From a virus (Duplodnaviria; Heunggongvirae; Uroviricota; Caudoviricetes), in the IMG/VR virus record IMGVR_UViG_2681813421_000002, positions 22,586 to 86,585 of that record: a stretch of DNA of 64,000 nucleotides; one strand, written 5' to 3'. Each line of letters starts with the position of its first letter. Within the stretch, counting starts at the first letter, position 1. Below are positions 11,455 through 52,473 of the stretch, piece after piece. The notes under the pieces are model-generated. The model was not told the DNA's origin, ran no database searches, and saw nothing but the letters and a program-made list of their open reading frames with translations. The translations under genes and the position numbers were made by a program.

Positions 11455-11700
11455 GCAGCCTCCTTTTGCTAATTTAAGGAGCTACCGCGTGAGGTTCCAA
11501 TCTCAATGGCGGTAGCACTGACTGGGTTGGAACTACCGGCGCAAAAGGGAACCGGCCTGCCTTTCGGCAGCCCAGCCAGCACTACCATTGATCTCTGAGC
11601 TAAACGCTACGTATGGCTGTGCGATGGCATGACACAAGAAAAGACGCTTTCGGCGTCTGTGTCGCCTTTTGCATTATCCGGGGTTCCAATCCCGGCACCC
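11455..11700 (-). ncRNA. c4: c4-like antisense RNA region (immI-type) with repeated target elements
   Basis: Two hairpins whose loops carry GGTTCCAATC (plus-strand reading, near 11490-11520 and 11678-11695) and an intervening complementary element GGTTGGAACTACC; layout matches P1 c4 with a1/b1 and a2/b2 sites ahead of icd. Confidence 0.4.
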
Positions 11701-11763
11701 GTTTTTCTAAGGTGCCGTAGAAATATACCCCACGATAATGCCAGGGCGCAACAGTCAGTATTT

Positions 11764-11930: not shown

Positions 11931-12249
11931 TTTGACTCCCCCAGCGCGAATAAAGAATGCAGATTATCGCGTGAGTGGTGGACGACGAGTGATGGGAAAA
12001 GACTGTAGTTGTTCATAGTGTAGTGACTCCTTGCTTTCGGAGCCGCCATCGACTGTTCCACGGTCTGGTGGCGGCGCAATAAAGGCTGGAACACCGTGAG
12101 TCAACGGGGGCTTTTCAGCCACCTATATTGCACCGCCATAGGTATGGCGGGGGCAATAATACGAAAAACTAAACAGTTTGTCTCAAAAAGTTGACCGGTG
12201 TGCCAATCGGTAGTGAATGTACATCGGAGAAATTTACAATTCAACTTAA

Positions 12250-12269
12250 AATGTTAGAAAACTAATTTA
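12250..12269 (-). promoter_or_regulatory. Operator-like motif (AATTAGTTTTCTAACAT on minus strand)
   Basis: Member of dispersed operator family; lies at 3-prime end of ref-like gene, upstream of the small-ORF/c4-like region. Confidence 0.45.
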
Positions 12270-12840: not shown

Positions 12841-12904
12841 GATGGCTGCCTCTTACTTTTCAGCTATTTTTCTATGATTGATCAAAACAGTTAGATATTC
12901 AAAA

Positions 12905-12922
12905 TTGATTTTCTAACACAAA
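12905..12922 (+). promoter_or_regulatory. Operator-like motif (TTGATTTTCTAACACAAA) in divergent promoter region
   Basis: Between ref-like start (12840) and plus-strand operon start (13113). Confidence 0.5.
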
Positions 12923-17433: not shown

Positions 17434-17473
17434 TCAAATCATTTACGCACTCAAAATCACATTAGAACATTGA

Positions 17474-17493
17474 TTTTAGTTTTCTAACATATT
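17474..17493 (+). promoter_or_regulatory. Operator-like motif (TTTTAGTTTTCTAACATATT)
   Basis: About 40 bp upstream of 17532 start. Confidence 0.5.
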
Positions 17494-21258: not shown

Positions 21259-22661
21259 TCACTATTACCAAAGAACGCCTGCTGACAATCCAGCAGTGGC
21301 GCGAAACATACGGACCTGGTAGCAACGTTGTACTGCCAGCAGAAGAAGCGGAAGAACTGGCACGAATTGCTCTGGCATCGCTGGAAGCAAAACCAGTTGC
21401 TTATATTTTCAAACATCCGGCCGGGAAATTATTCTGGGCTTTAACGGATGAAAGCAATAAAGAGCAAGCGGACGTTATTCCTGTTTATGCTGCCGCGCCT
21501 GCGTCGGTTGTGCCGGATAATGCATCAGAGCCTCTTGCTTATGCTTACAAAGAGCTTACGCCTGAGATTATGCGCAACCATTTAGCTGTATTCGAGCGAT
21601 ATGGAATAGCCCCAAACGATAGCTCTACCACAATTCAGGCACTGCGAATCGCGCTGGATGGTATAGAGCGGAGCGACGCCATGCTTCAGTCCGGAAACTT
21701 TCGGGAAAACAAGAATTCGTCAACCAATAATTTTCGGGAAATCGCGGAAACGTCAACCAACTATCCGGTAATTCCTAGTGAGCTGTTGTCCGCAATCCTG
21801 AAGGTTGCCAAGATTCGTGCCGATTTCGATGATTTTGACGGTGACAGGCGAGGTATCGATGATTGTCTGGATGAGGCTGAGCAAGAGCTTATCGTTACCA
21901 TTAACAAATATGCCAGTCAGTTGGCAGCAGAACCGATAGCGACTAATGACGTTCGAGAGCAAACAGCCGTTCCGCCAGTTCCGGTAATGCAGGCTGATGT
22001 CGCGCAGGCAATTGAAAAACTCAAACGGAAATTAGTGGAATGCAATCGCTATAACTACTGTGCAGATGCAGTTAAAGGCGTAGAGGATGCCTGCCGTGCT
22101 GTTAGCTATAGCCAAGCCGACAATCAGCCAGCATCTGGCAACCAGGCTGCCGAATCCAATCGCGGTAATGAGTGGACCGGCAATCCTGATATTGATAACG
22201 CCATCATCATGCTCGATCGCATAGATACGCTGGAAAGTTGCGATGATGACCGTATTGAGGCTGTTAAGGCTGTTTTGCGTAGACTGGCTGGCAACTATCC
22301 GGATATTCCGGATAGTTCGGTGCCAGCGCCAGGAAAGGGCGTCACCGGTGAACGTATCCGCATTAAGCCGCATGTTTATCGCGAACTGGTTAACCGTCTC
22401 CACGATACAGCGATCAAGTGTGCTGGCACCCAGCAATTACGAGAAAGAATTAGCCGTGTTTTGGGCGACGTTATTACACCAGATCATCATAAACAAGCCG
22501 AGAAAAGTGACCTGGAAAGGTGTCACCTTGAGGCGGCATTAAACATTAAGCCGGGGCATACGCTTGGCATTATTGATGCACTATTGGTTCATAAGATGGC
22601 CAGGGCTTTATTGCCGCTGGTGGCTGAAAAGCATGAGGTGGACCATGCCAACGAAAGCTGA
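21255..22661 (+). CDS. Hypothetical protein with internal tandem repeat and C-terminal motif shared with 13113-13724
   Basis: 468 aa; repeated FRENK/FREIAE segment; YRELVNRLHD...GTQQLRER. Confidence 0.5.
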   Translation: MITITKERLLTIQQWRETYGPGSNVVLPAEEAEELARIALASLEAKPVAYIFKHPAGKLFWALTDESNKEQADVIPVYAAAPASVVPDNASEPLAYAYKELTPEIMRNHLAVFERYGIAPNDSSTTIQALRIALDGIERSDAMLQSGNFRENKNSSTNNFREIAETSTNYPVIPSELLSAILKVAKIRADFDDFDGDRRGIDDCLDEAEQELIVTINKYASQLAAEPIATNDVREQTAVPPVPVMQADVAQAIEKLKRKLVECNRYNYCADAVKGVEDACRAVSYSQADNQPASGNQAAESNRGNEWTGNPDIDNAIIMLDRIDTLESCDDDRIEAVKAVLRRLAGNYPDIPDSSVPAPGKGVTGERIRIKPHVYRELVNRLHDTAIKCAGTQQLRERISRVLGDVITPDHHKQAEKSDLERCHLEAALNIKPGHTLGIIDALLVHKMARALLPLVAEKHEVDHANES

Positions 22662-26616: not shown

Positions 26617-27057
26617 TCACTCCACAACAAACCAGTCACAGGCCAGCAGGTCGCCAACTGAAGGCACCCACGGAACAACTACACCTTGTGCATTTTTTAA
26701 GGCGAAATAAGCACCATACGGAACGAGGTCGCCGGGGAAATATCCCTTAATGGCTTCCATTCGTGCCGGGTACTGTCCTTCAGGAACCAGCCAGCAGAAT
26801 TGGTTTTCGCCGTTCCACCCGCGTCGAGCAACTTTCTTGCCTTCCTTCAGCCACATCAGCGCGTCTGAAAAGTCGGCTGCTTCAAGGTCGATTTCTTCTT
26901 GCTGGGTGGTGATGCCACCAGCAGAAATAGTTACGCTCCCGGTAAGATTAATCATCACGCCGTTGTCATCCGTAATGATGACCGTGGTTCCATTTTTTTT
27001 GTGAGCTTTGTATTTGGGACGGAACTTAAAAAGCTCTTTCGTTGCCATGTTATTCAT
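26617..27057 (-). CDS. DUF2829-family protein (Tad2-like fold) with N-terminal extension
   Basis: 146 aa; FSDALMWLKEGKKVARRGWNG ... VGDLLACDWFVVE signature. Confidence 0.55.
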   Translation of the reverse strand: MNNMATKELFKFRPKYKAHKKNGTTVIITDDNGVMINLTGSVTISAGGITTQQEEIDLEAADFSDALMWLKEGKKVARRGWNGENQFCWLVPEGQYPARMEAIKGYFPGDLVPYGAYFALKNAQGVVVPWVPSVGDLLACDWFVVE

Positions 27058-28380: not shown

Positions 28381-28435
28381 AGCACCCTCCTAAATAGGCG
28401 AGGGTACTTTACAGCAAAGATGTTAATCTAAAAAG

Positions 28436-28455
28436 ATGTGTTAGAAATTTAATTT
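28436..28455 (-). promoter_or_regulatory. Operator-like motif (AATTAAATTTCTAACACATC on minus strand)
   Basis: Between cre stop and start of the 114-aa gene. Confidence 0.5.
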
Positions 28456-29482
28456 ATAAATCCATCAGGCGGCTATTAGCCCCCACAGACACGCCGCCAC
28501 GGCGCAGATACCGCATAAGTGTTTCCGGTTTCTTCCAGGTTCCTTCCTGCATAATCTCCACCATAGAGACCTGCTTTTCAGCCATATCGATAGCGGCCCC
28601 GACGCGTGCACTATGCCCGGTCCACGTCCGGTATCTTCCTTTGTTTGGCGTAGCATCTCCTTTATTCAGCAACACCCAGGCGTCGCTGAATATTTTCTCC
28701 ATTGCAGGTGCAGTAAGGGGCGTTATCGTGATCCTGGCCTTATTGCTACGGTGTATCGGCGGGAACAGCACTGCGTCAGGATGTTCGCGAAGCCCGGAAA
28801 CATCCAGCCAGTCATTCAGCACAGCGGTAGTGCGACGGGAAAGCACCTTATCAAGCCCGGCGGCGGTCGTTATTGTCTTCGTGTGTGAAATATGTAGCGT
28901 GACAGTGTCACCTGTTTGGTCCAGATCTCCTACACGAATACGCGAGATTTCCGACATACGCATCAGCGTATTGTATGCAACAAAGAGAAAAGCCCGGTTG
29001 CGCAGGTCCACCAGCCGTTCAGACCTGGACAACAGGACGTCGAGCAGTTTCAGATCGTCCCACCGCAGCGGTATAGCCTGGCCTGTTCGTTCGCCTTTTT
29101 CAGTTGCCGCTTCGCGCCGGATGCGCCGCATAGCCAGAGAAACACTTTTATCATCCGAAAGTGGTGGAAGGCCACAATGCGAAAGCAGCATGTTCAGCAT
29201 GGCGTAGTGCTTATCAATGGTGGTCGAAGCCAGATCGGCATCATGCAGCTGAAGAAAATACTCGCGGGCCATTTCTGGTGAGATCGGAAACCAGGCAAGC
29301 TGGCGAGCGTGACACCAGCGCGCCCAGGAATGAAACACCAAACGGAGGTCGCGCAGAGTATTCGGCGCATAAGCTCCCTGGTCATTCATGAACCGCATAA
29401 AGTTTTCTGCGGCTTCCTGGTACTCTTTGCCAATGTTGCGCAGAAAACCACCGGAACTGCCAGAGATAATTAATTCACCCAT
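28454..29482 (-). CDS. cre: Cre-family tyrosine recombinase (diverged from P1 Cre)
   Basis: 342 aa; colinear with P1 Cre including catalytic-region motifs (AYNTLMRMSEISRIRVGDL; WTGHSARVGAA; GTW; MRYLR) but many substitutions. Confidence 0.85.
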   Translation of the reverse strand: MGELIISGSSGGFLRNIGKEYQEAAENFMRFMNDQGAYAPNTLRDLRLVFHSWARWCHARQLAWFPISPEMAREYFLQLHDADLASTTIDKHYAMLNMLLSHCGLPPLSDDKSVSLAMRRIRREAATEKGERTGQAIPLRWDDLKLLDVLLSRSERLVDLRNRAFLFVAYNTLMRMSEISRIRVGDLDQTGDTVTLHISHTKTITTAAGLDKVLSRRTTAVLNDWLDVSGLREHPDAVLFPPIHRSNKARITITPLTAPAMEKIFSDAWVLLNKGDATPNKGRYRTWTGHSARVGAAIDMAEKQVSMVEIMQEGTWKKPETLMRYLRRGGVSVGANSRLMDL

Positions 29483-29633
29483 GAAACTATTTGACCTCTA
29501 TATACAGATGACGCTACGCGAAAAATATAAAAATGACAGGGTAGCTATAAGTTAATTTTCAAAATACAAGCCTTTGATTCGAGGCACGTATTTTCAGTGA
29601 TGTCAACACTGTTCATCTACACATGATTATAGC

Positions 29634-29667
29634 CTAACTTTAAATAATGCCAATTATTTAAAGTTAT
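29634..29667. other. lox-like recombination site (13-bp inverted arms, 8-bp spacer)
   Basis: CTAACTTTAAATA-ATGCCAAT-TATTTAAAGTTAT; same architecture and partial identity with loxP, located about 150 bp upstream of cre. Confidence 0.65.
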
Positions 29668-29762
29668 AAAATGCCGATTTTTTTTAATCCATCATAGATT
29701 GATGATGACCAGTAACACGTTGCCTTCATGGTCTTTAATTTGCGAAGTGTGGTTTCTACGGT

Positions 29763-29779
29763 TGGTTTTCTAAAATTGA
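29763..29779 (+). promoter_or_regulatory. Operator-like motif (TTGGTTTTCTAAAATTG)
   Basis: Variant core TTTCTAAAA upstream of repressor-candidate gene. Confidence 0.35.
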
Positions 29780-29845
29780 TGACAAAAAATCACAGTTCGA
29801 TCCTTTACTCACCCTGTTATTCGACATAAATTTGTCATAGTAATT

Positions 29846-29864
29846 TTATGTTAGAAAACTAAAT
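29846..29864 (-). promoter_or_regulatory. Operator-like motif (ATTTAGTTTTCTAACATAAA on minus strand)
   Basis: 13 bp upstream of the start codon of 29877-30914. Confidence 0.5.
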
Positions 29865-29876
29865 CGAGTAGGAATA

Positions 29877-30914
29877 ATGAGTAAGAAGTCGATCGAGAAA
29901 GAGTACAAACGGTTCCTGCAAACCGCTGAACGGTGGAAAGAGCTGGTGGTCGCAAACTCTGTTTTCCATGATACCAGTTATGCTGGCGAGGAATTCCGCC
30001 ATGTTGCATTAACGCATGACCAAAACATATTAGAAGAAGCTGAAAAATGTCTTGCTGAATGGAAAGCCTTCGTTGACATGTGCCGCGATGCCGACGGCAA
30101 AGCGTCGAACATTGTTGAGTCTGTATATTCTCCGATCCCATTCATCATTGAGGACACCAATCAAAGCACGCATGTCGTTGTGCAAAGCGCTACAACAACA
30201 CGTACATTTACACGTGAACAATTGCTAAAAAAATACGACAAAATCATAAAGAAAAGCCTGAAAAATAGGGTTTTTTCTCAAATCGTAGGTGCTCTTGAAG
30301 AAGAACAGCGCTTCTTTGAAGCTGAGCCTGAAGGCGAGATCTACCGGGCGCGTAAAGAGGCATATACAGATGTTGTGCTGACAACAAACATCGAAGGCAG
30401 CAATGCCCTTTCTCGCTTTAGAGTTGGCGCACATGGCGCATTGGTTTTCGCAAGACTACCGAAGACAACGATCCCCGTTGTCAATAATGTTGGTGAACGC
30501 CGGAGCATTACAATTTATTCTGGCGTCGAATCGGTACCATGCAGCCTTCTCGGCGATTTTAACTTATATCGTGTTCGTGACCTGGAAAAACACCAGCCAA
30601 GCTACGTTGCGAAGTCGTACATCTTAAGGAACATCGATATTCGCAATGAAAGCCTTAAGCAGAAATCCGCTAAGATGCTGGAGGATGCCGATCCGGCTAT
30701 TCGCCATATCATTGAACGTAAGATACGTACATCACGTGAAGCAATGGCAAGGTTGGATAAAATGGATCTGGAATTGTTAGACGTAATGATGGCCTCTGGA
30801 GACGACCTGACCGGCATTAAACTGAATGAAGCTCGTAAAAAATACGGCAAAGCAATCGAAGAACGTTACGGATACACATTCCCCCAAACGCAGTACGCCG
30901 CGAAGCTCTGGTAA
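29877..30914 (+). CDS. Candidate C1-type immunity repressor (positional analog of P1 c1)
   Basis: 345 aa; lies between lox/cre and pacB, convergent with pacB, flanked upstream by two operator-like motifs; I do not recognise the protein sequence itself. Confidence 0.4.
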   Translation: MSKKSIEKEYKRFLQTAERWKELVVANSVFHDTSYAGEEFRHVALTHDQNILEEAEKCLAEWKAFVDMCRDADGKASNIVESVYSPIPFIIEDTNQSTHVVVQSATTTRTFTREQLLKKYDKIIKKSLKNRVFSQIVGALEEEQRFFEAEPEGEIYRARKEAYTDVVLTTNIEGSNALSRFRVGAHGALVFARLPKTTIPVVNNVGERRSITIYSGVESVPCSLLGDFNLYRVRDLEKHQPSYVAKSYILRNIDIRNESLKQKSAKMLEDADPAIRHIIERKIRTSREAMARLDKMDLELLDVMMASGDDLTGIKLNEARKKYGKAIEERYGYTFPQTQYAAKLW

Positions 30915-30923
30915 TCACAACCG

Positions 30924-30946
30924 GCCCCGCATCGCGGGGCTTTTAT
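30924..30946 (+). terminator. Rho-independent terminator
   Basis: GCCCCGC-ATC-GCGGGGC followed by TTTTAT. Confidence 0.55.
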
Positions 30947-32451
30947 ATATCCAGATCCGGCATTTCGATATCCGCCAGAACCTGATCTCGGAAAGTTGCC
31001 ATTTCGGCACCAATATCTTCATTAGCAGGCACATAGTCCACCAGCATAGTGAAGCAGTAGGTATCCCATCGGTCAGGCGATTTGATGTTTAGCTTTTGCC
31101 GCATGTGCTCTTTGCGCATCATCGCCATTTTCCCTTCCTCATTCAGTAAAAAGGGGATTTTTGACGCTTGCTCTGCCGTTTTAGGGTCACTGTCTATCCG
31201 CATACGCCCTGACTTTATGGCATCACGCGCCATAATATTTGCGTAGGCACGCTGATTAACAAATCGCTCCCTGTCTTTGTTCGCAAACATGGGTTTTCCC
31301 CACCGAATACGTACCGGGTTCGCACCACGACGTACCAACTGCGCACACGTATCAGAACCAAAACCATCGGCATCAACCGCGATTGTTATATTCGGGTATT
31401 TTTCCGGCGTACATTCGTTATATATAAAGTCAGCAAAGGCCAATGGGTCCATAGTGCCAGGCATCTCCATTACCTTAAAGTTAACAACGCGCCGCTTATC
31501 CCTGTGACCAGATACCTTGCAGATGTTGAGGACCGACTTATCTCGCCCATTACCAACGTCAGCCGTTGCCACCCATCCCCAGTTTTTCTCCAACAACACC
31601 TTGCGGCGAGCAGCGCGATCGCATTCATCACGACCAAGCAAATAGCCGTTAATTTCTCGTGGGAACTGACCAAGCACCTTGACCATATACTCAATAGAAT
31701 CGCGCCCACCATATTCCAGAAGCTTCTGCCTGATGAATTGTGGTGTGACGAACGGTGATTCTTCCGAGTTAAGAACAATTGCTGTCCAGATCCCTTTCGG
31801 GTTGTCTGGGGTTTTTGCTTGAGAATGGTGCGAATCGTAGAAATAACCACTTGGCCTTGTTGGCTGGGATAGCATCAACATCCGGTTATCTTCTTCAGTA
31901 AGAGCACCGGTCATTACGCCGATCGCCTTATCAGATATACCAGATGCTTCATCCAGAATTAGAAGCAAATGTGCCGCATGTTCCCCCGCCAGCGCTTCTT
32001 CGTTGCCGAGTCGATAACCTTTGCAGAGAACTTCCCAAATCCCCTTACGGGAGCGCTCATAAAACATGGTGTCAGAGAGGACAAAATAGGTCTGCAACCA
32101 CCCATGACGCTTAACTGCATTCGCCCAATACTGTTTAACGTATTTGAATACGCCTGTTTTTACCTGGCCTATCTTGTTAGCAACAATGATGACACGGGCA
32201 TCGGGGAACAGGATCATAAAAATCAACAGCAACATCGCGGTAAGGGACGACTTCCCAGTTCCGTGTCCGGACGTGACGGTCGTCCTACTCCCCGTTTCCT
32301 GCACGGACTGAATGATCTGCTGCTGCTGGTGGGAGGGGAACATCCCAAAAATATCGACAACAGCCTGGGTAAAGTTGTAGCGGTATTTGATTACCATATC
32401 GCGCCAGCGTGGATCGCTGGTGACGCATTTAATCTTGCGCCCTCCAGCCAT
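30943..32451 (-). CDS. pacB: Terminase large subunit (PacB-like)
   Basis: 502 aa; Walker A GHGTGKSS, Walker B LLLILDEA, C-terminal nuclease-type acidic residues. Confidence 0.85.
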   Translation of the reverse strand: MAGGRKIKCVTSDPRWRDMVIKYRYNFTQAVVDIFGMFPSHQQQQIIQSVQETGSRTTVTSGHGTGKSSLTAMLLLIFMILFPDARVIIVANKIGQVKTGVFKYVKQYWANAVKRHGWLQTYFVLSDTMFYERSRKGIWEVLCKGYRLGNEEALAGEHAAHLLLILDEASGISDKAIGVMTGALTEEDNRMLMLSQPTRPSGYFYDSHHSQAKTPDNPKGIWTAIVLNSEESPFVTPQFIRQKLLEYGGRDSIEYMVKVLGQFPREINGYLLGRDECDRAARRKVLLEKNWGWVATADVGNGRDKSVLNICKVSGHRDKRRVVNFKVMEMPGTMDPLAFADFIYNECTPEKYPNITIAVDADGFGSDTCAQLVRRGANPVRIRWGKPMFANKDRERFVNQRAYANIMARDAIKSGRMRIDSDPKTAEQASKIPFLLNEEGKMAMMRKEHMRQKLNIKSPDRWDTYCFTMLVDYVPANEDIGAEMATFRDQVLADIEMPDLDI

Positions 32452-33815
32452 TAATCATCCTCCGGCGGTTCTATCGCGATATCTTCATCTCCGGCGTCAT
32501 ACCCTGCATCAGATGCATCATAATCACCGTAAATTTCAGCCGTTGCCGAAGGGTCAATATCCAGCTCTTCGTCGTTGGCCTCGAATTCTCCAGCTTTACG
32601 CTCGCCATTGCGGTCGTAATCTCCGCACCCCAATTCTTCAACAATGGTTGCCACATCCGCCCGGCGCTCTGCCAGCCATTGCGGATGGTTAGCCTGAAGC
32701 GTCGCAAACTCCCTTGCCTCTTTGTCCAGCTGTTCATCATCAACATCATTGACGTCAGAAACAGGTGGTTCGAGAAGAGTGATAGCTTTCGCCGCGCGCG
32801 CCGCGAGGATAGCCGGGACGCTGACCCCCTGGCGCTCGATGTATTCAGCAACACCGATATCATCCAGTTCCTCGCGCTCACGCATACGTATAGCGGCGGC
32901 GATAACTCTGGCTGCGCGTGCGTCAGCGCCAATGCGATATTCAATCTCTTTGCCACGCTGTTCGGCCTGTAGGCGTGCTAATTCGAGTTTTTCTCTGGCC
33001 TCAGCCTCTTTGAATGCTTGCTGGCGAGCGCTCTGACGAAGCTTTTCATCCCCCTGTCGCAGCTTTTGTTCGGACTGATATATAGCTGCCAACCTACTGA
33101 TAAAATCATTCATGTAGTAGGCAGCGTCACTGATTAGACCGAGAAGGCGCTGCCCAGGGTGCATTCCTTCTGGCTCTTTATCGCCCAAGGCGTCTATTTC
33201 CGCCTGTAGACGTTCGGCCTCCTGATCAACAATGCTTTGATACTGAAGTGCGCGCTCTTGCGCCATTTGAATTGCTAACCGCAGGTGTTCTTCTGCGCCG
33301 TTCTTCATCATATCGCGAGCCACATTCGTAGTGGGCAATGTGGCACGCTGCACAGCACCGCCAGGGATCATTGCTGAAGATCCCTCAATTTTTGGGGCGC
33401 TTTTATCTTCTTCGGGGATCATTTTCGCCATTTTTTCGCGCAATGATCTCCTGACAGATTCTTTTATCTCATTGTTATTATTTGCATTATTTTCATGATC
33501 CGAAGTTTTCTTTCTCGGCATACTTCGGAAAGAACCTGCGCCCTGCGAATTGTCAATTTCTGTAAATTTTGTTTTTTCTGCACCCTCTTCCAGCTTTTTT
33601 GTTGCTCTTCCCGCCCGTTTTTTTTCAGGTGATTTGGTGCTTTTTTTTGTTGTCTTTACCTGCGACCGCACCTCATTTTTTTTCATATTGAGATGCTTTC
33701 TGGCTGTATTGAAGCTAAGGCCATGCTCCTCACAGTATTCCTTTACAGTGATCCCTTTTTCTTCACGCAACGCTATAAAGCGGGCGCGGTGCTCCTCCCA
33801 ATTAACCAGACTCAT
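32451..33815 (-). CDS. pacA: Terminase small subunit/pac-recognition protein (PacA-like)
   Basis: 454 aa; N-terminal HTH-like region, acidic C-terminus, 1-bp stop/start overlap with pacB, internal GATC cluster. Confidence 0.7.
   Translation of the reverse strand: MSLVNWEEHRARFIALREEKGITVKEYCEEHGLSFNTARKHLNMKKNEVRSQVKTTKKSTKSPEKKRAGRATKKLEEGAEKTKFTEIDNSQGAGSFRSMPRKKTSDHENNANNNNEIKESVRRSLREKMAKMIPEEDKSAPKIEGSSAMIPGGAVQRATLPTTNVARDMMKNGAEEHLRLAIQMAQERALQYQSIVDQEAERLQAEIDALGDKEPEGMHPGQRLLGLISDAAYYMNDFISRLAAIYQSEQKLRQGDEKLRQSARQQAFKEAEAREKLELARLQAEQRGKEIEYRIGADARAARVIAAAIRMREREELDDIGVAEYIERQGVSVPAILAARAAKAITLLEPPVSDVNDVDDEQLDKEAREFATLQANHPQWLAERRADVATIVEELGCGDYDRNGERKAGEFEANDEELDIDPSATAEIYGDYDASDAGYDAGDEDIAIEPPEDD
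33360..33505. other. pac-like packaging site: cluster of five GATC-containing elements within pacA
   Basis: GATC at 33366, 33379, 33417, 33445 and 33497, several as TGATC(C/T) in both orientations; reminiscent of the P1 pac hexamer repeats. Confidence 0.4.
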
Positions 33816-34204: not shown

Positions 34205-34280
34205 TAATCCCCCAGGCAGGAAATGACCGAGGGGATGATAATGAGAATGTTATTTCTGTATAGACTGGCAAAAAGTTGGT

Positions 34281-34315
34281 TATATTAGAAAATTAATTCC
34301 ATTCATCTAACACTA
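34281..34315. promoter_or_regulatory. Operator-like dyad (TATTAGAAAATTAATT ... TCATCTAACACTA)
   Basis: Two core motifs in inverted orientation upstream of the lpa-like gene. Confidence 0.5.
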
Positions 34316-35733: not shown

Positions 35734-35809
35734 TGGTGGCCCCTACCGGACTTGAACCGGTGACCGTGCGATTATGAGTCGCCAGCTCTAACCACTGAGC
35801 TAAAGGGCC
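35734..35809 (-). tRNA. tRNA with CAU anticodon, Ile2 (lysidine) type
   Basis: 76 nt with encoded CCA; near-identical in acceptor, D and anticodon arms to E. coli ileX-type tRNA as I recall it. Confidence 0.75.
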
Positions 35810-37144: not shown

Positions 37145-37231
37145 TGGCGGAGAGTAATGGAATCGAACCATCATCGCTTGCGCAATGGGACGGTTTTCAA
37201 GACCGCTTGAGCACCATGCTCCCTACTCTCC
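37145..37231 (-). tRNA. Type II tRNA with long variable arm, anticodon UGA (Ser-like)
   Basis: 87 nt; acceptor GGAGAGT/ACTCTCC, anticodon stem GCGGT/ACCGT with loop CUUGAAA, T-arm GATGG-TTCGATT-CCATT, G73 and CCA. Confidence 0.5.
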
Positions 37232-37685: not shown

Positions 37686-37761
37686 TGGTGCCGGTTAACG
37701 GACTCGAACCGCTGACATCCTGCTTACAAGGCAGGCGCTCTACCAACTGAGCTAAACCGGC
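37686..37761 (-). tRNA. tRNA-Thr (anticodon UGU)
   Basis: 76 nt; GCCGGTT acceptor, GCTCAGTTGGTAGAGC D-arm, loop CUUGUAA, T-arm GGTTCGAGTCC, CCA. Confidence 0.8.
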
Positions 37762-37763
37762 AT

Positions 37764-37840
37764 TGGCGATGGTGGGTGGATTCGAACCACCGACCGACAG
37801 CTTAGAAGGCTGCTGCTCTATCCTACTGAGCTACACCATC
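37764..37840 (-). tRNA. tRNA-Arg (anticodon UCU)
   Basis: 77 nt; loop CUUCUAA, T-arm GGTGGTTCGAATCCACC, CCA end. Confidence 0.75.
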
Positions 37841-38300
37841 ACTTGCCGGGTACGTCTCCGGCGAGGGCTTCCACCTCCGTATGCTTTTCGGCGCACCGCG
37901 CCCTGGCTGCAATTCGGTAACAGGGGATGCACAACCCTGGCTTCCAGCGTGATTAGCGCCTTCAGCATGACGGGATATACCCGTAGTAGGATGTTATCCC
38001 AGAAAGCCATTAATCAATGGCTGTTACGCGGGAGGGACGTAACAGGTAAGGGCGCTGACCAGAAAGACCTGACCCTTCTCATTCATCTGGTTAATCACAC
38101 CAGCACCCTTGCCTGTTATGCCTCCCCGTTCCCTAATACACAGACGGGGACACTCTGCGGTCGATTTTTTGACGGGGGACGACTCATACCCCGTGGCGTC
38201 AGGCTTCTTAGGCCGCTACCATCATCAGATCATCGTTTGCATTTACTTTAATGGTCGGGTTCTAAACCGCCGCAAAGTCGCTAACCATGACGAAAACCCT

Positions 38301-38324
38301 AAAAAAGCCCACCCGAAGATGGGC
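38301..38324 (-). terminator. Rho-independent terminator (minus strand)
   Basis: GCCCA-loop-TGGGC followed on minus strand by TTTTTT. Confidence 0.45.
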
Positions 38325-38344
38325 AAATACGCTACATCTCACAC

Positions 38345-38422
38345 AAGAAAGAAGCCGACTGCCTGAGCTGGATTCACTTTCAAATGCCCGCTGAAAGGGA
38401 TCACAAGTCGGCTTCTTTCTTG
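38345..38422. repeat. Perfect 17-bp inverted repeat with 45-nt spacer
   Basis: CAAGAAAGAAGCCGACT ... AGTCGGCTTCTTTCTTG. Confidence 0.55.
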
Positions 38423-38638
38423 ATGCGGCACTCTCTCCGCCCGTCACCGCTCTGTCTCGGTTGTCGCGTTTGCCACGCCAGCCGTAACGAGGTTTAAAGT
38501 CTTTGCACGTTTCCATCACTCGACTGCCGTCTGTGGCTGTTCGTTGCAGCGGGGGTGCCTCCCCCTGGGGATATCCCCGGCCTTACCCCATTCTTTCAAG
38601 ACACAATGCAAGGCCACATCCGCATAGGTGCATTACTG

Positions 38639-38703
38639 CAACATTAAGGAGACTCAGGGCAAAAGGTAACCGCCACAAAAATCCCTATGCCTCCTTAATG
38701 TTG
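38639..38703. repeat. Perfect 13-bp inverted repeat with 39-nt spacer containing an inner stem
   Basis: CAACATTAAGGAG ... CTCCTTAATGTTG. Confidence 0.55.
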
Positions 38704-38905
38704 AAGACGTGCATTGATGATTAGATGCAGCATGTACCGTTACTCTCTGCCGGACCATCATCAATGAACACCTTAAAAAGACCTTCCGTGGCTCAACATG
38801 TATTGTCGTTTACTCCGCAAAGTGCTCTCTCTGAAACCACTTTCCGCACTAAACCTGCTGAACTTTGGCCTGCACGGTGCCAAAGCGTGCTCTTGCGTTA
38901 CTACA

Positions 38906-38921
38906 CTTTTCTAACACTTTA
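38906..38921 (+). promoter_or_regulatory. Operator-like motif (TTTTCTAACACTTTAA)
   Basis: Core TTTCTAACAC inside the structured noncoding region. Confidence 0.4.
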
Positions 38922-39055
38922 ATTTGTTAAATGCTGGTGGGCAAACAATAACCAATAAGTGACTATCAAGCCCAGCAAGCGAAACGTGGGTACCGCCCAC
39001 CAGCAAGGAAAATTCTATGTTAAGTTACCTTCACAATCAATACATTCGAATTGTG

Positions 39056-39076
39056 AATTTAGTTTTCTAACATATT
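39056..39076 (+). promoter_or_regulatory. Operator-like motif (AATTTAGTTTTCTAACATATT)
   Basis: Overlaps the 3-prime end of gene 39075-40283; placed to control minus-strand transcription into the 38.3-39.0 kb noncoding region. Confidence 0.45.
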
Positions 39077-40907: not shown

Positions 40908-41402
40908 TTAATCAAGACAAACATACTCCGTGATAGCTTTTATGGCTTCAGCGGCACTGCGCGCCTCAAAGCAGTAGTAACCGGCTTCAGTGAGGCGAGT
41001 CATCCAGACGAGTTGTTCGGGAGTCAGGCGATTTCTCCCATGTTTCATCTCAATGCGCATTCCGTGGTATCCCCCACAAGCAAGGTCTATAGAAAGATCG
41101 GGGTATCCCTTCTTTTGGCCCTCTGCCACCATTTTTATTGCCGTCCTTATGCCTCGCAGGCCACCGTTTGGAGTGGCGTGAGTATGCTCATACACATAAC
41201 GCATATTGCGATACAACCAGTCCAGGACGCGAACCTGCTCGTAATGCTCATGGTTCCTTTTGATTAGATCTGGGTTTTTCTCCAGTTCTCTAAGAGCTGC
41301 GGCATGTGGGGATGTTTCAGAATATTCACTGCGACGCCTTCTCTTTTGCGCTATTTTTCTAACACACTCATTGATAGTAAATATGCGAAATAATAACAAC
41401 AA
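40908..41402 (-). CDS. VRR-NUC domain nuclease
   Basis: 164 aa; HATPNGG...GYPDLSIDLACGGYHGMRIEMKHG (PD-(D/E)XK core). Confidence 0.6.
   Translation of the reverse strand: MLLLFRIFTINECVRKIAQKRRRRSEYSETSPHAAALRELEKNPDLIKRNHEHYEQVRVLDWLYRNMRYVYEHTHATPNGGLRGIRTAIKMVAEGQKKGYPDLSIDLACGGYHGMRIEMKHGRNRLTPEQLVWMTRLTEAGYYCFEARSAAEAIKAITEYVCLD
41351..41368 (+). promoter_or_regulatory. Operator-like motif (CTATTTTTCTAACACACT) within 5-prime region of VRR-NUC ORF
   Basis: Exact core TTTCTAACAC; position inside the annotated ORF is unusual. Confidence 0.35.
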
Positions 41403-41538: not shown

Positions 41539-41799
41539 TTAAAGGGTTATTTTATCCTGTTCGGATAATTCTTTGATTGTCTTGTCGATTGCGATCAACC
41601 AACCTTCATAGGTTAAATCATCAACAAGTTCTACCAACTTATCATCGGTGTGAGGAAAGTATATCCAGCTCCAGTTCGCAGGGTTTTCTGCTTTTCGCAG
41701 CGTAAAAACCTTCTTGTATCGGTGGAACTCAAGGATATACCCCTTCGATATGGAATATTCCTTTAGGTCTTCGACCGTAAACCTACGATTCTTTCGCAT
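41539..41799 (-). CDS. Hypothetical protein
   Basis: 86 aa ORF. Confidence 0.4.
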   Translation of the reverse strand: MRKNRRFTVEDLKEYSISKGYILEFHRYKKVFTLRKAENPANWSWIYFPHTDDKLVELVDDLTYEGWLIAIDKTIKELSEQDKITL

Positions 41800-50929: not shown

Positions 50930-51200
50930 TAACAACCTGCGCCCCGCTGCTAAACGGGTGGCAGGACGTGACGGGGTTAGCAGACTGGCACGAATGAAAC
51001 CAGCAGGCCGAAGCCTCCCCATCACGCCCCACCATAATTCGGGCGTAACGTGGTTTTACGGACACAAAAAACCGCAATATCGGATATCTGCGGTTGTCCG
51101 CATTCGTATTCAGGCTGCTAAACCCGGTCGCAGAATTTGCTACGACGACATGAATATAAGCCTGAAAACATGGAAGATCAACTAAAAATTTCAGCAATGG
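50930..51200 (-). ncRNA. Second c4-like antisense RNA region with a different target motif
   Basis: Repeated GCTGCTAAAC elements (near 50935 and 51113) and a partly complementary GGTTAGCAG element between them. Confidence 0.35.
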
Positions 51201-51248
51201 ATGACTTCAGTCGATGATGCAGATCATACATTCCGATTTAGAAACAGC

Positions 51249-51270
51249 AAATTAATTTTCTAACACAAAT
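51249..51270 (+). promoter_or_regulatory. Operator-like motif (AAATTAATTTTCTAACACAAAT)
   Basis: Upstream of the second c4/icd/ant-like module. Confidence 0.5.
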
Positions 51271-52282: not shown

Positions 52283-52453
52283 CAGATAGTTCCGTGAAAA
52301 AATCTATCTACCGTATAAATCTATGGCAGTGGATTTATACACCCAAAAAGCCGCTTCTCAGCGGCTTTTGCTTTTTTGGCAGTCGCTACCGGAGCAGTGA
52401 CCGCGATCCTACTCGATCCCATCCACCAGGATCAACAGTGTATATAAATACAC

Positions 52454-52473
52454 TATGTTAGAAATTTAACTTA
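52454..52473 (-). promoter_or_regulatory. Operator-like motif (AGTTAAATTTCTAACATAG on minus strand)
   Basis: Overlaps a candidate promoter upstream of the RepL-like gene. Confidence 0.5.

Follow-up and report, generated by a model that had tools for sequence, protein, structure and literature searches.

The stretch analyzed here is a 64,000-nucleotide segment of a virus of the class Caudoviricetes (IMG/VR record IMGVR_UViG_2681813421_000002, positions 22,586 to 86,585), which we will call the window, and the gene in question is c1, an open reading frame (ORF) of 345 amino acids (aa) at 29877-30914 on the plus strand. Its product, C1, very probably acts as the C1-type master repressor in a D6-like plasmid prophage, one that would repress a dispersed early and lytic regulon as well as its own synthesis. 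We read it as the primary immunity repressor because of its homology to the C1 repressor of phage P1, the conserved synteny of its locus, and an operator motif that is dispersed over the window; on the same three grounds, the candidate immunity repressor that an initial annotation, made from the DNA sequence without database searches, had proposed at the c1 position is supported. The gene itself is already known. What goes beyond the public annotation is the operator consensus with the predicted regulon map, and the prediction of a Tus-like fold for the C1 family.

The 1.46-kb c1 segment shares 99.2-99.5% nucleotide identity with Escherichia phage D6, and the protein is 100% identical to D6 C1 (AAV84948.1 / ASR76322.1; GenBank AY753669 and MF356679), which was deposited in 2004 and re-annotated in 2017. 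The label in AY753669 is phage repressor protein "similar to the C1 repressor of phage P1", and that in MF356679 is "prophage repressor". D6 has in common with the window not only the identical C1, with no difference in the c1 gene, but also the neighbors dre/rox, pacB, pacA, and lpa. The whole window is a mosaic D6-like plasmid prophage, in which most of the matched blocks show 92-98% identity to D6, while certain segments have been replaced. The c1 locus is matched by 140 PLSDB plasmid records, mostly from E. coli, Salmonella, and Shigella, and a published survey of D6-like plasmids (PMC6799933) likewise describes a homologue of C1 together with two c4/icd regions, Lxc being absent.

Leftward of c1 lies a gene for a Cre-like tyrosine recombinase of 342 aa (28454-29482, minus strand; Pfam Phage_integrase match) which, according to the D6 annotation, is dre, encoding Dre, while the adjoining inverted repeat is rox. 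On the other side, the genes for a PacB-like large terminase (30943-32451, minus strand) and a PacA-like protein (32451-33815, minus strand) converge on c1, with an lpa-like gene beyond. The P1 record has the same order and orientation, pacB and then convergent c1, and the order recombinase, c1, pacB, pacA, lpa is kept in P1 and in the five relatives whose flanking sequence is long enough to show it (L006, L007, L008, L012, and L013). The initial annotation had placed the 345-aa gene between a lox/cre-type module and pacB, convergent with the latter as in P1, and this arrangement holds.

Operators were sought with an unbiased count of 11-13-mers in the window, one mismatch being allowed, in which one AT-rich word, TGTTAGAAAATTA, greatly exceeds the background. 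Seeded with this word, a matrix derived from the window converges on 14 window sites of 19-33 bits, with the next best scoring less than 10 bits. If a strong site is defined as one of at least 19 bits, none occurs in 20 first-order Markov simulations of the window. The consensus is asymmetric and ~18 bp long, TGTTAGAAAAyTAAwTT (extended, AATgTGTTAGAAAAyTAAtTTa), and with the same matrix the complete D6 genome possesses 17 sites of at least 12 bits; operators are annotated in neither D6 record (AY753669, MF356679). The sites in the window, predicted in silico and placed with the help of the D6 gene map and Rfam, are the following:

785-822, overlapping inverted operator pair with a 6-bp overlap (23.3 and 26.5 bits), directly upstream of the hrdC-methylase operon
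12248-12269, plus strand, operator that falls at the 3' end of ref and precedes the first C4 RNA / icd / antirepressor module
12901-12922, minus strand, operator in the divergent ref/orf88 promoter region
17472-17493, minus strand, operator upstream of a pdcB-like gene, paired in D6 with a weaker overlapping inverted copy
28435-28456, plus strand, operator between the recombinase stop codon and the leftward orf117-orf116-dut-Tad2-like operon, a site kept here in L006-L008
29845-29866, plus strand, proximal c1 operator, in the c1 leader (28.4 bits)
34279-34300, plus strand, operator 75 nucleotides (nt) upstream of lpa (late-gene activator), corresponding to P1 Olpa
38899-38920, minus strand, operator in an unannotated ~1.2-kb stretch upstream of the leftward transfer RNA (tRNA) genes
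39055-39076, minus strand, operator in the same ~1.2-kb stretch, overlapping the pmgS stop codon
40304-40325, minus strand, operator in the pmgR-pmgS gap, upstream of a pmgS-like gene
41347-41368, minus strand, weaker operator (19.8 bits) at the 5' end of a pmgM-like gene
51248-51269, minus strand, operator that precedes the second C4 RNA / a1b1 / icd / antirepressor module, at the position reported for P1 Op51
52452-52473, plus strand, operator ~170 nt upstream of repL (lytic replicon), at the position reported for P1 Op53

In P1, ref, the c4 region, kilA-repL, and dmt are also preceded by C1 operators. Those before lpa (Olpa) and around c1 (Oc1a-e) are annotated in the P1 record, and one of these, Oc1ab, is bivalent, with a 6-bp overlap equal to that of the 785-822 pair. 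Since the window sites lie at these places, the predicted regulon of D6-type C1 corresponds to that of P1 C1. Searched with up to 3 mismatches, the 64-kb window contains no match to the P1 operator consensus ATTGCTCTAATAAATTT, and heteroimmunity with P1 is therefore predicted. A P1-type operator at 29828-29844 (4 mismatches) was considered and dropped, as it does not recur elsewhere in the window.

One should ask whether the TGTTAGAAAA motif might instead serve another factor, for example as an Lpa promoter element or as the target of a host protein, with C1 reading something else. All of the sites are in AT-rich intergenic DNA, which is rich in promoter-like hexamers, and some of them precede genes annotated as morphogenetic (pmgS, pmgM). 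Yet copies stand before lpa itself, c1, repL, and the immI modules, that is, before early or lysogeny-control genes, and the P1 late-promoter region LPpac shows no likeness to the motif, which argues against an Lpa element. Moreover, the length, asymmetry, and dispersal of the motif and its overlapping inverted pair mirror the P1 C1 operators, and the c1 leader of every relative examined carries one strong copy. We therefore regard another factor as unlikely, and C1 as the probable reader of the motif.

Several observations can be set beside this map. The window contains two complete immI-type modules, each with a C4 antisense RNA upstream of icd/antirepressor genes and each downstream of a C1-type operator. 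RNA matches are found at 11505-11592, 11637-11715, 50954-51039, and 51107-51159, all on the minus strand, and include one a1b1 target and one isrK-like small RNA. A Tad2-like (anti-Thoeris) protein (26617-27057, minus strand; Pfam PF11195, E 5.9e-23) is encoded in a leftward operon together with a dUTPase, and as this operon starts just past the 28435-28456 operator, an anti-defense gene may be under C1 control. Lastly, the ~1.2 kb between the tRNA genes and pmgS (37840-39075) possesses no convincing ORF and no D6 annotation, and has two strong operators at its right end; it may serve the leftward tRNA/tciA-tciB unit as a leader under C1 control, or else code for an unrecognized RNA.

Apart from the proximal operator, the features of the c1 locus are as follows:

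29635-29666, rox site (so named in the D6 annotation), formed by a perfect 14-4-14 inverted repeat, TAACTTTAAATAAT-GCCA-ATTATTTAAAGTTA, at the left boundary of the c1 control region
29758-29779, minus strand, distal degenerate operator-like site with core TTTTAGAAAACC, in which the consensus G is replaced by T; inverted relative to the proximal operator and 87 bp upstream of it
29804-29832, plus strand, candidate c1 promoter with -35 TTTACT (29804-29809), a 17-bp spacer, and -10 TAAATT (29827-29832)
29870-29873, plus strand, Shine-Dalgarno-like AGGA ahead of the c1 ATG, from direct reading of the sequence
30923-30949, plus strand, c1 intrinsic terminator, GGCCCCGC-ATC-GCGGGGC followed by TTTTATAT, made up of a hairpin (30923-30941) and a T-tract

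The terminator hairpin has an 8-bp stem with 7 G-C pairs, begins 9 nt past the c1 stop codon, and folds with -15.9 kcal/mol (z = -3.17), a value equaled by none of 200 shuffles. The clean terminator described in the initial annotation is thus borne out, and so are the two operator-like motifs that it had seen upstream of the gene. These are TTAGAAAAC motifs in inverted orientation, and the 15-nt arms of the inverted repeat that they form (29762-29776 and 29848-29862) are 87% complementary. The recombinase-c1 intergenic region was aligned for the window and seven relatives, whose C1 proteins are 44% to 89% identical. Besides rox, this alignment holds four conserved blocks, TTTTCTAA at 29766-29773, TTTACT at 29804-29809, TA..TT at 29827-29832, and TTATGTTAGAAAA at 29845-29858. 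The last belongs to the proximal operator, whose core TGTTAGAAAACTAA (29849-29862) ends 14 nt before the c1 ATG, and it is invariant; the operator core is conserved upstream of c1 even in relatives with C1 44-51% identical. The distal core TTAGAAAA, which is TTTTCTAA on the other strand, is likewise invariant and at the same position. In L006 and L007, the distal site is the full TGTTAGAAAAA / TGTTAGAAAA motif, in the same inverted orientation and with a spacing of 88 bp (87 bp in the window), and it is for this reason that we regard the distal site of the window as a real, weakened operator.

A standard promoter scan returned nothing on the plus strand upstream of c1. In a relaxed scan (8/12) of the operator flanks, TTTACT-N17-TAAATT is the sole plus-strand sigma-70-like candidate in that position, and its nucleotides T185-A188, T190, T208, A209, T212, and T213 (numbering of alignment A4) are invariant across the relatives. 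With the start predicted from this candidate, the proximal core would lie ~10-25 nt downstream and the distal one ~70 nt upstream, an arrangement therefore compatible with autoregulation by occlusion or roadblock, with looping as a possibility. Other candidates were rejected: TCGACA-17-TTTTAT and TTGTCA-17-AAAACT as c1 promoters, which are not conserved in the relatives, and the TGACAAA / TTTGTCA inverted pair as an operator, which neither recurs in the window nor is conserved in the relatives. The rox site encloses a leftward near-consensus sigma-70 promoter, TTGGCA-16-TATAAT (11/12; 29626-29653, minus strand), directed toward the recombinase gene; the lox site of P1 likewise bears the cre promoter.

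The relationship to P1 C1 is distant. BLASTP gives 21% identity over 240 aa (E 2e-8), and because of this low identity it is understandable that the protein had not been recognized as P1 C1 from the sequence alone. The profile search against C1 repressor families that the initial annotation had suggested as a check is positive, with phrog_1678 being matched end to end by the window C1 (E 2.8e-170) and by P1 C1 (E 2.6e-140). The precomputed Pfam family PF27008, "Phage_P7_repressor_C1", is present on all of the D6-type and P1-type clusters retrieved; a local Pfam scan of the window C1 was empty because PF27008 is missing from the local copy. When 9 D6-type sequences were compared with 10 P1-type sequences using hhalign, the probability was 97.2% (E 3.9e-11) over 230 collinear columns, and a joint alignment of the two subfamilies has 15 invariant positions (Y10, F13, D32, G37, R41, P86, P88, I90, L140, R157, R159, V183, G187, Y214, and C222). 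An exhaustive hidden Markov model search gathered 83 clusters, reaching a P1-type cluster at E 4.6e-6, and these form a continuum from D6-type proteins of ~350 aa to P1-type proteins of ~250-290 aa. By sequence, then, the window C1 is a member of the P1/P7 C1 family (PF27008, PHROG 1678), but not an equivalog. The suggestion in the initial annotation that it might represent a distinct repressor lineage does not stand, given phrog_1678, PF27008, and the hhalign result, which tie it to P1 C1, and its complete identity to D6 C1.

Within this family, the homology to P1 C1 covers residues 1 to ~240, and residues ~245-345 (30609-30911) constitute a subfamily-specific helical extension. Where D6-type C1 has this conserved ~100-aa helical C-terminal region, P1 C1 has a short basic tail, and the window protein is ~60 aa longer. 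No part of D6-type C1 is better conserved than this extension (MD.EL..M.SGD.L...L..AR..YG..IEE..G.TF), which in the window protein has no Pfam match. The possibility that it is a fused Lxc was rejected at the sequence level (hhalign probability 0.3%).

The window also differs from P1 in the parts that surround the repressor. In P1 the lox-to-c1 region is ~700 bp long and contains coi/imcA/imcB, whereas the window has ~210 bp from rox to c1, without these. The largest plus-strand ORF between rox and c1 is 33 aa and none is coi-like, in agreement with the initial annotation, and tblastn with P1 Coi and Lxc found no match in the window or in D6. An 86-aa ORF (41539-41799, minus strand) lies directly downstream of ulx, at the position of P1 lxc (Lxc, 82 aa). 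It has no detectable Lxc similarity (PHROG 6844 versus 2160), and could be a non-homologous functional analogue of Lxc, or unrelated.

Judged by these comparisons, D6-type C1 forms a deep subfamily of extended proteins that has an operator sequence of its own and lacks both Coi and Lxc. What it has in common with P1/P7 C1 is the slot convergent with pacB, dispersed asymmetric operators of 17-18 bp, including those before c1 and lpa, overlapping inverted "bivalent" operator pairs with a 6-bp overlap, and a Tus-like fold that is predicted for both.

A number of points weigh against the master-repressor reading and should be kept in mind. The NCBIfam model NF041318 (P1 C1 equivalog) gives 25.4 bits (E 8.9e-6) against a cut-off of 500 bits, and with a score so far under the cut-off the same function as P1 C1 is not guaranteed. 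The link between motif and protein is circumstantial, built on position and on the analogy with P1, and comes without co-variation, as the core is kept in all D6-type relatives. The orientation of the operators relative to the regulated genes is mixed, about half each way, and no consistent polarity was found. At c1 itself, the distal site, owing to its T in place of the consensus G, scores 4.6 bits, which is not significant alone (~20 such sites are expected by chance in 64 kb), and the candidate promoter, whose position is inferred, matches the consensus at 8/12 only, which is under the threshold of the standard scan. Finally, no experiment showing DNA binding or immunity for D6 C1 was found in the sources consulted.

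If C1 is the master repressor, it would bind each motif, probably as a monomer; P1 C1 binds as a monomer, and both C1 types are predicted to form a Tus-like two-domain clamp. Binding would silence lytic replication, the synthesis of antirepressor, and Lpa, the late activator, and would in this way maintain plasmid lysogeny and superinfection immunity. C1 would limit its own synthesis through the proximal operator, placed as it is just downstream of the predicted start. The distal inverted site may assist by looping, which has been reported for P1 c1 autoregulation, or it may face leftward transcription in the way that P1 Oc1e, which is inverted relative to the other operators in the P1 record, faces cre. 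With an operator unlike that of P1 and with Coi and Lxc missing, the prophage would be heteroimmune to P1, and the two immI modules would be its sole source of antirepression. The conserved helical extension may provide a surface for self-association or for binding a partner.

The predicted fold gives a second line of comparison. An AlphaFold2 model of the window C1, made from a 19-sequence family alignment, has a mean predicted local distance difference test (pLDDT) score of 84.9 and a predicted template modeling (TM) score of 0.52. It consists of an alpha/beta region (residues 1 to ~232) with two very long strands (99-112 and 155-171), a long helical hairpin (233-307), and a small helical bundle (316-342). 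For both the D6-type and the P1-type models, the sole significant matches in the PDB are to E. coli Tus (1ECR, 4XR0-2). The P1-type model (pLDDT 78.6) matches Tus with E 3.3e-9 to 1.1e-8 and TM-scores of 0.40-0.47; across the models the TM-scores are 0.34-0.47, all below 0.5, at a sequence identity of 8-9%, and these are predicted folds from models that share one shallow alignment. At the level of profiles, 96 C1-family sequences compared with 80 Tus sequences by hhalign yield a weak, collinear match (probability 32.7%, E 4.7e-4, 162 columns), compared with E 0.11-0.16 over 16-20 columns for reversed-sequence controls. The window C1 has no Pfam Tus match and falls outside the Tus sequence family, and a PDB sequence search with the C1 family profile returned noise only, with no chain match.

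Tus binds as a monomer to a long asymmetric site, and so does P1 C1; the match to Tus is therefore mechanistically sensible. In the model, the two long beta-strands that pair with each other (99-112 and 155-171) appear to resemble the interdomain strands that Tus places in the major groove. On balance, we lean slightly toward the view that the whole P1/P7/D6-type C1 family is built on the Tus fold, which would also suggest a shared ancestry of Tus and the phage-plasmid repressors. No publication linking C1 and Tus was found in the library searched, and the link may already be noted elsewhere. As an aside, the operator core tATGTTAGAAAACTAA (e.g., 39055-39076 on the minus strand and 29845-29866 on the plus strand) has the ATGTT and AACTAA blocks of the E. 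coli Ter core, ATGTTGTAACTAA, but with two extra bases between them. The likeness is curious given the predicted fold, but it may be coincidence, chance being possible in AT-rich DNA.

Taken further, the resemblance could mean that C1 is mainly a Tus-like polar barrier to replication forks or elongating RNA polymerase, and not a promoter-occluding repressor. Tus arrests forks at Ter sites, whereas C1 would repress transcription at many promoters, and the known role of P1 C1 is to repress transcription from defined promoters. The mixed orientation of the operators argues against a strictly polar block, and the TM-scores reach 0.47 at best; we give the polar barrier even less credence than a motif read by another factor. 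Least probable of all is a repressor unrelated to P1 C1 that came into the c1 slot by non-orthologous replacement, for which one could cite the low identity, the empty local Pfam scan, a tblastn search of 50,697 phage records (E <= 0.01) that matches D6 alone, the ~60 additional residues, the different operator, and the missing Coi and Lxc, but which is already refuted at the homology level by the shared PHROG and Pfam families, the collinear profile alignment, the positions invariant across the subfamilies, the continuum of intermediate clusters, and the same top fold match.

D6-type prophages are frequent as plasmids of E. coli, Salmonella, and Shigella. The operator consensus and predicted regulon permit their immunity groups to be predicted, and the consensus allows engineered control circuits beside the Dre/rox tool from the same locus. 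The streamlined circuit, without Coi and Lxc and with two c4-antirepressor modules and an added C-terminal domain, is a natural comparison for the P1 paradigm. The Tus-like fold, although a prediction, is the most interesting open lead. If confirmed, it ties a classic phage repressor to the bacterial replication fork trap and would be the first structural explanation of how monomeric C1 repressors read long asymmetric operators; the fork trap of the Enterobacterales was then perhaps domesticated from a DNA-binding protein of a mobile element, or the reverse.

Two further observations concern the window as a whole. Chi (GCTGGTGG) is strongly over-represented, with 16 copies on the plus strand and 30 on the minus strand versus ~0.8-0.9 expected per strand, and one copy is inside c1, at 29942; P1 is also Chi-rich. 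The tRNA genes Thr, Arg-tct, Ser-tga, and Met (37686-37840, 37145-37231, 35734-35809) are placed on the minus strand by ARAGORN and Rfam, whereas the collinear D6 GenBank record puts them on the plus strand and names one of them tRNA-Asn. The D6 tRNA annotation is probably in error as to both strand and identity.

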